NCBI RefSeq assembly: GCF_041248615.1
Contig: NZ_CP158426.1
From: Escherichia coli
GTDB lineage: Bacteria; Pseudomonadota; Gammaproteobacteria; Enterobacterales; Enterobacteriaceae
DNA: 64,000 nt
Reading direction: 5' to 3' (one strand)
Each line of letters starts with the position of its first letter. The stretch's first letter is position 1. Below, piece by piece: positions 13,723 through 15,060 of this stretch. The notes below the pieces were generated by a model, which made no database searches, had not been told where the DNA came from, and saw only the letters and a program-made list of their open reading frames with translations. A program made the position numbers and the translations under genes.

Positions 13723-15060
13723 TTAGTTTGGCAGCGTGCGATCTGGCGTCGTCACCGTACTGGCCGTTTGTGCCGTTGCCCCCTGCGGCGCAGATTGCAT
13801 CGGATGCGCAAGGAAATAATTGCGCAGGCCTTTGTAAATGGCTTCTGCCAGCTGTTGTTGGTAATCGTCGCTCGCCAGCAAACGTTCTTCGCTGTTGTTG
13901 CTGATAAAACCGGTTTCGACCAGTACTGATGGGATATCCGGCGAACGCAGAACGCCGAGACTCGCGTGTTCTGGTCGGCGTTTATGTATTTCGCCAATGC
14001 GTTGCAACTGACTGATCATACTGGTCGCTACATCATACCCTACCCGTTGGGAATGACCGAACTGTAAATCCAGCACCGCCTGGCTTAAATAGGGGTCAGA
14101 CTGACTGTTCGCCAGCACATCACCCGCCCCACCCAGCAGCTCCGACTGTTTCTCGTGCTGCTCCAGCCAGCTGGCCATTTCGCTGTTGGCGCGACGGTTA
14201 GAGAGCACCCATACGGAAGCGCCAGTCGCACTGCGGTTCGGTGCGGCATCAGCGTGAATCGACACGAGGAAATTGGCGTTTTGCTTACGTGCCACATCAC
14301 TGCGCCCCATCACCGAGATAAAGTAATCCCCGTCACGGGTTAAAACGCCCTTAAACATCGGATCGTCATTGAGCAAAGTACGCAATTTACGCGCGATGGC
14401 GATGGTGACATTTTTCTCCCGCGTACCACCGGGGCCGATAGCGCCAGGGTCCTGACCGCCGTGTCCGGCATCAATAGCGATGATAATTTTATCGCCAGTG
14501 TTAGCCGTCGCGCGCGCTGCCGGACGCGTTACCGTATTACTGCTGATAACACCCGTAGTGCGGTTACTTTCCGTTTTAAACGGATTGCGCGCCGGTTCGC
14601 TGACGCGCGGTGCGACAACCGCAGGCGTTTCAACGCGTTTCGCAACCACGGGCGGCGGAGGAGGAGGTGGCGGCGCATCGGCGTTAATCGTAAAGACGAC
14701 AGTGTAATTGCTGCCATTCTGCCGCTTCACCGCTTCGGTTTTACCGTTTTCGGTAAGATCGACCACCAGCCGTAGCGTTTGTGCATCTTTAGGCGTTCCA
14801 GAGCGAATCGCCTTCACCAGATTATTGCCGCTGAACAACAACGGCAGTCCCTGAATCACGCCCGTTTGTTTGATATCGAGCGCCACGGTGCGTTTGCTTT
14901 GATGGCTAAACGCATAATCAGGATCGCCAATAAAACTCAACGTTATCCGCGCCTGTTGATTACCGTTAGAAACCTGAATATCAGAGAGCGTCGCGGCACC
15001 CACCTGCGCGCACAGCAGCAGCAACGTCGCTACCAACCAATTTCTGATGCGATACATCAT
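13723..15060 (-). CDS. amiB: N-acetylmuramoyl-L-alanine amidase AmiB (445 aa from ATG at 15060)
   Basis: Translation [25 protein letters not shown]... with an Amidase_3 domain; contains a run of 8 consecutive Pro codons (plus coordinates 14650-14673). Confidence 0.9.

Follow-up and report, generated by a model that had tools for sequence, protein, structure and literature searches.

The eight-proline tract of Escherichia coli AmiB, a documented EF-P-dependent pause site and a probable structural spacer

Introduction

The activity of elongation factor P (EF-P) requires β-lysylation of its residue Lys34 by EpmA and EpmB, and cadC is the textbook example of an EF-P-dependent gene. In CadC, a PPP stall motif of the XPPX type (Ude et al. 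2013, cited in PMC4402525) slows the formation of peptide bonds between consecutive prolines, and β-lysylated EF-P relieves the stall. The proline tract of AmiB described here follows the same scheme, and, as at XPPX stall motifs, the ribosome-profiling asymmetry of amiB climbs sharply in an efp deletion. It differs from the CadC motif in that it consists of eight prolines instead of three, and in that its host is an exported cell-wall hydrolase. To our knowledge, no regulatory use has been described for the AmiB stall, in contrast to the copy-number tuning described for CadC.

Polyproline motifs situated between domains have been treated by Qi et al. (2018; PMC5811046), who reported their enrichment in a zone from −2 to +9 residues around the domain ends of E. 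coli proteins and proposed that the pause aids co-translational folding. The AmiB tract, starting three residues past a domain end, lies inside this zone; since AmiB folds after export, the proposal transfers poorly to this protein.

The Pro-rich region of TonB is generally known as a rigid periplasmic spacer, built of a long segment of alternating Glu-Pro/Lys-Pro. The AmiB tract would resemble it as an extended polyproline-II segment placed between a functional module and one for anchoring or targeting; unlike the TonB segment, it is a short homopolymer that leads into a disordered linker. With contingency loci the AmiB tract shares repeat-like coding DNA and in-frame length differences between isolates, but it lacks a perfect repeat array, its variants are fixed within lineages and there is no sign of high-frequency switching.

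The tract is located in a DNA stretch of 64,000 nucleotides from E. coli (contig NZ_CP158426.1 of assembly GCF_041248615.1), which was analysed as a whole and is referred to below as the window. A syntenic 50-kb region of the K-12 chromosome corresponds to positions ~13.9-63.9 kb of the window.

Results

The ORF at positions 13723-15060 (minus strand) encodes the N-acetylmuramoyl-L-alanine amidase AmiB (445 aa plus the stop codon). The encoded protein matches the NCBIfam equivalog NF007751 over its whole length (residues 1-445 of 445; 978.3 bits, against a cutoff of 532), and the length of the gene agrees with the RefSeq annotation of K-12 (1338 nt). The same-strand neighbors of amiB are tsaE (15079-15540) and mutL (11866-13716), and the K-12 annotation shows the same tsaE-amiB-mutL context. 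The protein also has the architecture of AmiB, i.e. an N-terminal AMIN domain (Pfam PF11741, residues 27-112; 20.8 bits, cutoff 20.5) combined with a C-terminal Amidase_3 domain (PF01520, residues 194-413; 164.7 bits, 2.8e-48). An N-terminal signal peptide (approximately residues 1-22; 14995-15060, minus strand) was predicted by reading of the sequence and is accompanied by a helix at residues 2-16 of the AlphaFold model; the same reading revealed no twin-arginine motif in this peptide. Export of AmiB is presumably of the Sec type, with folding in the periplasm.

In the AlphaFold model (44-sequence alignment; mean pLDDT 80.7), the AMIN β-sandwich spans residues 24-127 (strand pLDDT 85-96), with residues 118-127 forming its last strand. 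Residues 128-191 are without secondary structure, with a block-mean pLDDT of 69 at 131-140 and only 36-51 at 141-190. The catalytic domain occupies residues 192-423. Three segments of the minus strand may be delimited on this basis: (i) the AMIN domain, a septal peptidoglycan-targeting β-sandwich (residues ~27-127; 14680-14982), as predicted by Pfam and AlphaFold, (ii) an inter-domain linker (residues 128-189; 14494-14679), disordered in the AlphaFold model, and (iii) the Amidase_3 catalytic domain (residues ~190-422; 13795-14493), as given by Pfam and PDB entry 8c0j. The latter structure, of E. coli AmiB, matches residues 190-422 only (5e-143), and no solved structure covering the linker or the tract was found. 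In the published description of a cryo-EM study of the FtsEX-EnvC-AmiB complex, the AmiB linker (residues 136-175 in the numbering of that study) is reported as left unbuilt.

The plus strand at 14650-14673 reads gggcggcggaggaggaggtggcgg, and the minus strand carries at these positions, in frame with the amiB ORF, eight proline codons (CCG, CCA, three CCT, two CCG and CCC, in this order), translated as Pro130-Pro137 of AmiB. The initial annotation had placed eight consecutive proline codons of amiB here and assigned them to the AmiB linker. Sequence, frame, translation and NF007751 identity all agree with the former statement, and Pfam together with the AlphaFold model supports the latter by locating the tract at the AMIN/linker junction: as modelled, the eight-proline tract (P8) opens the inter-domain linker, three residues past the end of the last AMIN strand. 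P8 exceeds the minimum of three consecutive Pro codons within a translated ORF by which stall motifs are recognized. Chance can be excluded as its origin, because proline runs elsewhere in the window reach four residues at most (six-frame scan) and 200 shuffles of the window yielded maximum runs of 3-5 prolines, never eight.

The DNA of the tract had also been described as an imperfect trinucleotide repeat and a plausible site of length variation. In-frame variation does occur, as documented below, but a formal DNA repeat was not recovered: Tandem Repeats Finder called none in the tract, even at a minimum score of 30, the codons are of several kinds and nowhere form a perfect stretch longer than (CCT)3. 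The apparent trinucleotide repeat is only the CCN periodicity imposed by the Pro codons. Two further readings of this DNA were rejected as mirror images of the same codons: a plus-strand ORF at 14461-14775 (104 aa, with an Arg-rich stretch), which is not an independent gene, and a run of eight glycines in another plus-strand frame (14651-14674), which is not a gene.

The remainder of the linker has features of its own. It contains the motifs VVAKRVE (residues 138-144; 14629-14649, minus strand), EPARNPFK (residues 155-162; 14575-14598, minus strand) and TRPA, conserved at most positions in 70-99% of 80 Enterobacteriaceae species. Although nominally disordered, the linker is not free to vary, and this conservation suggests an unrecognized role in binding or regulation. 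Some AmiB alleles of E. coli, Shigella sonnei and S. flexneri (proteins P0007-P0017) carry in-frame deletions of 25 or 31 residues in the distal linker (AmiB residues ~150-182; ~14515-14610 of the window, minus strand) and keep P8; in length these deletions correspond exactly to the distances, 75 and 93 nt, at which GC-rich direct repeats of 6 nt (GCGCGC and CGCGCG) are spaced. Escherichia whittamii (L015) has a 10-residue in-frame duplication directly after P8, which points again to small duplications and deletions as a mode of change in the linker.

Published ribosome profiling bears directly on translation through the tract. According to Martens et al. (2015; PMC4402525), no proline run in E. 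coli is longer than this one, and a sharp ribosome-footprint peak is seen at the eight amiB Pro codons in wild-type cells. Asymmetry scores, which relate the ribosome occupancy before a motif to that after it, are given in the 2024 EfpL paper (PMC11611912, Supplementary Data 3). For amiB, its table covers six overlapping PPP positions and one PPV position, with scores ranging over (i) 1.0-1.24 in the wild type, (ii) 6.7-10.5 in the efp deletion, (iii) 1.0-2.9 in the efpL deletion and (iv) 3.8-6.7 in the efp deletion when EfpL is overproduced. Pausing in vivo (PMC4402525) and its intensification in the absence of efp (PMC11611912) are thus both on record, and the footprint peak and the scores of 6.7-10.5 bear out the earlier description of the tract as a strong stall motif requiring EF-P.

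When EF-P is missing, ribosome density downstream of the tract is ~7-10-fold lower relative to that upstream, and completion of the AmiB chain is therefore EF-P-dependent; wild-type scores of ~1.0-1.2 indicate no measurable loss of throughput. The amiB tract at 14650-14673 (minus strand), on the combined evidence of its sequence, translation, the shuffles and published ribosome profiling, is a documented pause site whose passage is strongly EF-P-dependent and whose throughput is normal in the wild type. AmiB is also said to have been among the EF-P-dependent proteins in the SILAC study performed by Peil et al. in 2013. The EF-P-dependent stall at P8 is already known and published, and the efp-deletion experiment suggested in the initial annotation has already been carried out at the level of ribosome profiling. 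A search for amiB in the supplementary data of Elgamal 2014, Starosta 2014, Qi 2018 and Elgamal 2016 gave no entry.

The tract was compared in 80 Enterobacteriaceae species, each represented by one genome (AmiB identity 78-99%); the genera sampled include Escherichia, Citrobacter, Salmonella, Enterobacter, Klebsiella, Raoultella, Kosakonia, Trabulsiella and Buttiauxella. A proline tract is present at the same site, after FTINAD-x, in every one of them. Its first run consists of five prolines in 12 species, six in 16, seven in 14, eight in 29, nine in five and ten in one, and it is interrupted early in three; Salmonella arizonae and diarizonae, as well as Klebsiella oxytoca, have P5 only. The tracts of the 80 species comprise 577 Pro codons (289 CCG, 144 CCA, 127 CCT and 17 CCC), the order of which differs by species. 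Scrambling of synonymous codons with retention of the prolines shows that selection acts on the amino acid, not on a DNA repeat. The share of CCC is only 3% (17 of 577 codons, loci L012-L091); this apparent avoidance may be directed against long C homopolymers, or against CCC-C contexts that are prone to frameshifts.

Outside this family the tract is rare. Among 123 more distant AmiB-like representatives having an N-terminal region, 61 lack any Pro-Pro in the part preceding the catalytic motif, and a run of at least four prolines was found in only four, two of which are Enterobacteriaceae-like. The tract is thus an ancient, family-level innovation specific to Enterobacteriaceae, long retained, the length of which is loosely controlled. 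One distant AmiB homologue (P0231, ~40% identity) has an independent P6 run, VVDLYDAANEPPPPPPALAP, following a VVDLYD motif that we take to be the end of an AMIN-like domain; this arrangement hints that a proline rod was gained convergently at this junction.

Variation within E. coli was surveyed with a 201-nt query centred on the tract, which matched 5,425 of 5,426 complete genomes; shorter alleles were recognized by their aligned span, and were then fetched and translated. The eight-codon length is present, by subtraction, in ~83% of the 5,425 genomes. Outside the PPPPPSPP background, all four alleles sampled from this class were uninterrupted P8, and P8 occurs in several synonymous versions (this window, K-12, O157:H7 and strain W150). 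The tract is two codons shorter in 860 genomes (15.9%). As counted by allele-specific BLAST identity bands, which give lower bounds or approximations, these include 711 near-identical genomes (~13%) with at most one mismatch from PPSPPPM, a lineage to which Nissle 1917 and the uropathogenic strain "clone D i2" belong, and 44 genomes with at most one mismatch from clean P6, an allele seen in strain SCU-301 and, separately, in a divergent strain.

By the same approximate counts, P7 occurs in at least 40 genomes, in two forms: A-P7 in 30 genomes, identical over the 198 bases compared and in 21 cases labelled O145 (O145:H28 strains), and V-P7 in 10 genomes (e.g. strain GmM062). At most 76 genomes lie within two mismatches of PPPPPSPP, exemplified by strain EC21Z-147. 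The serine interruptions are CCG→TCG transitions, and the P7 alleles are accounted for by a GCC-GCC duplet at the 5′ edge of the tract having lost one of its units, a one-codon loss found on two backgrounds (A-P7 and V-P7). When a synthetic P10 query was run against the 5,425 genomes, a search that strongly diverged backgrounds would escape, no allele longer than P8 ranked above plain P8. Of 60 evenly spaced rows of the census, 14 show no difference from the window over the 201 nt.

The comparison of tract length across E. coli alleles, as proposed in the initial annotation, thus yielded P8, P7, P6, PPSPPP and PPPPPSPP, and the tract is not invariant. Its length variants are fixed within lineages rather than unstable, and the tract is not hypermutable: of the two hallmarks of a contingency locus, a tandem repeat array and frequent length change among close isolates, neither was observed.

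The window also contains three genes of the EF-P pathway: (i) efp (34425-34991, minus strand), encoding elongation factor P, which relieves the stall in trans (TIGR00038, 253.6 bits against a cutoff of 185.8; synteny with K-12), (ii) epmB (yjeK; 35033-36061, plus strand), encoding a lysine 2,3-aminomutase-like radical-SAM enzyme that makes (R)-β-lysine (TIGR03821, 532.8 against 369.3), and (iii) epmA (poxA/yjeA/genX; 27071-28048, minus strand), encoding the EF-P--(R)-β-lysine ligase (NF006828, 603.7 bits against a cutoff of 264). The true start of epmA lies ~15 codons into the listed ORF, as NF006828 covers ORF residues 16-340 and the K-12 annotation gives 978 nt. The pathway encoded in the window had been described as complete; the equivalog models uphold the presence of efp, epmB and epmA, but the pathway is not complete. 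Its fourth gene, epmC (yfcM), encoding the hydroxylase EpmC/YfcM, is not annotated in the syntenic 50 kb of K-12, and it is not among the genes of the remaining ~14 kb, as judged only by ORF sizes compared with those expected for rnr-purA-hflCKX-miaA-mutL.

As annotated in the syntenic 50 kb of K-12, amiB is separated by ~13 kb from epmA and by ~20 kb from efp and epmB. The intervening DNA carries genes of unrelated function, namely queG, three tRNA-Gly genes, orn, rsgA, psd, mscM, yjeMNO, frdABCD, ampC, blc, sugE and ecnAB, and efp and amiB belong to different operons. We found no evidence for a functional meaning of the proximity of amiB to the EF-P genes. The cadC gene is located in the window as well (49219-50754, plus strand), with the PPP motif Pro120-Pro122 at 49576-49584, as revealed by the six-frame scan.

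Discussion

We consider it likely that Pro130-Pro137, which are maintained at the protein level, constitute a structural spacer, that the need for EF-P is a cost tolerated on this account, and that the nearness of efp, epmA and epmB is a matter of coincidental synteny. The tract, placed directly after the septum-targeting AMIN domain, opens the flexible linker by which the catalytic amidase domain is tethered. From the comparison of species and alleles, its length drifts between approximately 5 and 10 residues through rare in-frame gains and losses of codons, with an occasional Pro→Ser exchange (CCG→TCG). We infer that selection acts on structure: a short, stiff polyproline-II rod ~2.5 nm long would project the linker from the AMIN domain, with the EF-P requirement being tolerated rather than serving as a regulatory device. 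The exact run is not essential, as ~13% of E. coli genomes have PPSPPPM, some species manage with P5 and most of the distant homologues are without the tract.

A role as a selected translational throttle, in which the pause lets the signal peptide and AMIN part reach the Sec machinery ahead of amidase-domain synthesis, sets the output of AmiB according to EF-P activity or affects, via transcription-translation coupling, read-through into mutL-miaA-hfq, seems to us unlikely, though it is the strongest competitor. The start of the tract three residues past the AMIN end, in the zone in which polyproline motifs are enriched and for which co-translational timing was proposed (PMC5811046), is consistent with such a role, and so are the pause seen even in the wild type (PMC4402525), the retention of the tract in all of the Enterobacteriaceae species sampled and the position of amiB, which immediately precedes the same-strand genes mutL, miaA and hfq. 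However, the wild-type asymmetry published for amiB (PMC11611912) leaves no room for a measurable loss of throughput, and runs varying from 5 to 10 residues, with PPSPPP in a major lineage, are unlike a tuned timer. The co-translational-folding rationale is weak for a protein that, as is well established, is exported and folds in the periplasm, and the supplements of the EF-P coupling paper contain no entry for amiB or mutL.

It is a good deal less probable still that the allelic series P8, P7, P6, PPPPPSPP and PPSPPP sets differing EF-P-dependent ceilings on AmiB synthesis, possibly extending to mutL-miaA-hfq via translation-transcription coupling. If this were true, lineages would differ in cell separation, mismatch repair and Hfq response under limiting EF-P activity or proline supply.

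There is very little to recommend the idea of a hypermutable simple-sequence (contingency) locus, whose CCN repeat would slip often and supply populations with adaptive in-frame length variants. The P6, P7 and P8 variants of E. coli, the range of 5-10 prolines between species and the loss of a GCC-GCC unit on two backgrounds are of the kind that it predicts. Against it stand the mixed codons, with a perfect run of three units at most, the identity of almost a quarter of the evenly spaced rows (14/60) to the window and the failure of any allele longer than P8 to outrank plain P8 among the 5,425 genomes; it was rejected on two grounds, i.e. that no tandem repeat is detectable and that the variants are lineage-fixed (30 identical A-P7 genomes and 711 near-identical PPSPPPM genomes).

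Functional clustering of the EF-P genes with their most demanding clients is scarcely credible: amiB, efp, epmA, epmB and cadC do lie within ~36 kb of one another, and by our post-hoc estimate a randomly placed amiB would fall within 20 kb of efp on a 4.6-Mb chromosome in ~1% of cases, but the observation itself is post hoc, the genes form separate transcription units on both strands with frdABCD, ampC, mscM, psd, rsgA, orn, tRNA genes, groSL, aspA and dsbD between them, the 79 PPP motifs counted in E. coli BW25113 by a published motif table lead one to expect about one per 64-kb window, and epmC is not among the window genes as far as these were identified. That efp, epmA and epmB share one window with both the longest proline run (in amiB) and the classic client (cadC) is probably a coincidence.

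The tract connects the status of a translation factor with the synthesis of a septal cell-wall hydrolase and, as the strongest native polyproline run in E. coli, offers a convenient natural reporter of EF-P activity. Beyond confirmation the finding has otherwise little significance; its modest additions are the census, according to which about one-sixth of E. coli genomes carry a shortened or Ser-interrupted tract, and the conservation of the tract in Enterobacteriaceae as opposed to its absence from more distant AmiB proteins. The natural variants are ready for use in testing how the length of the run relates to EF-P dependence and to the function of AmiB.
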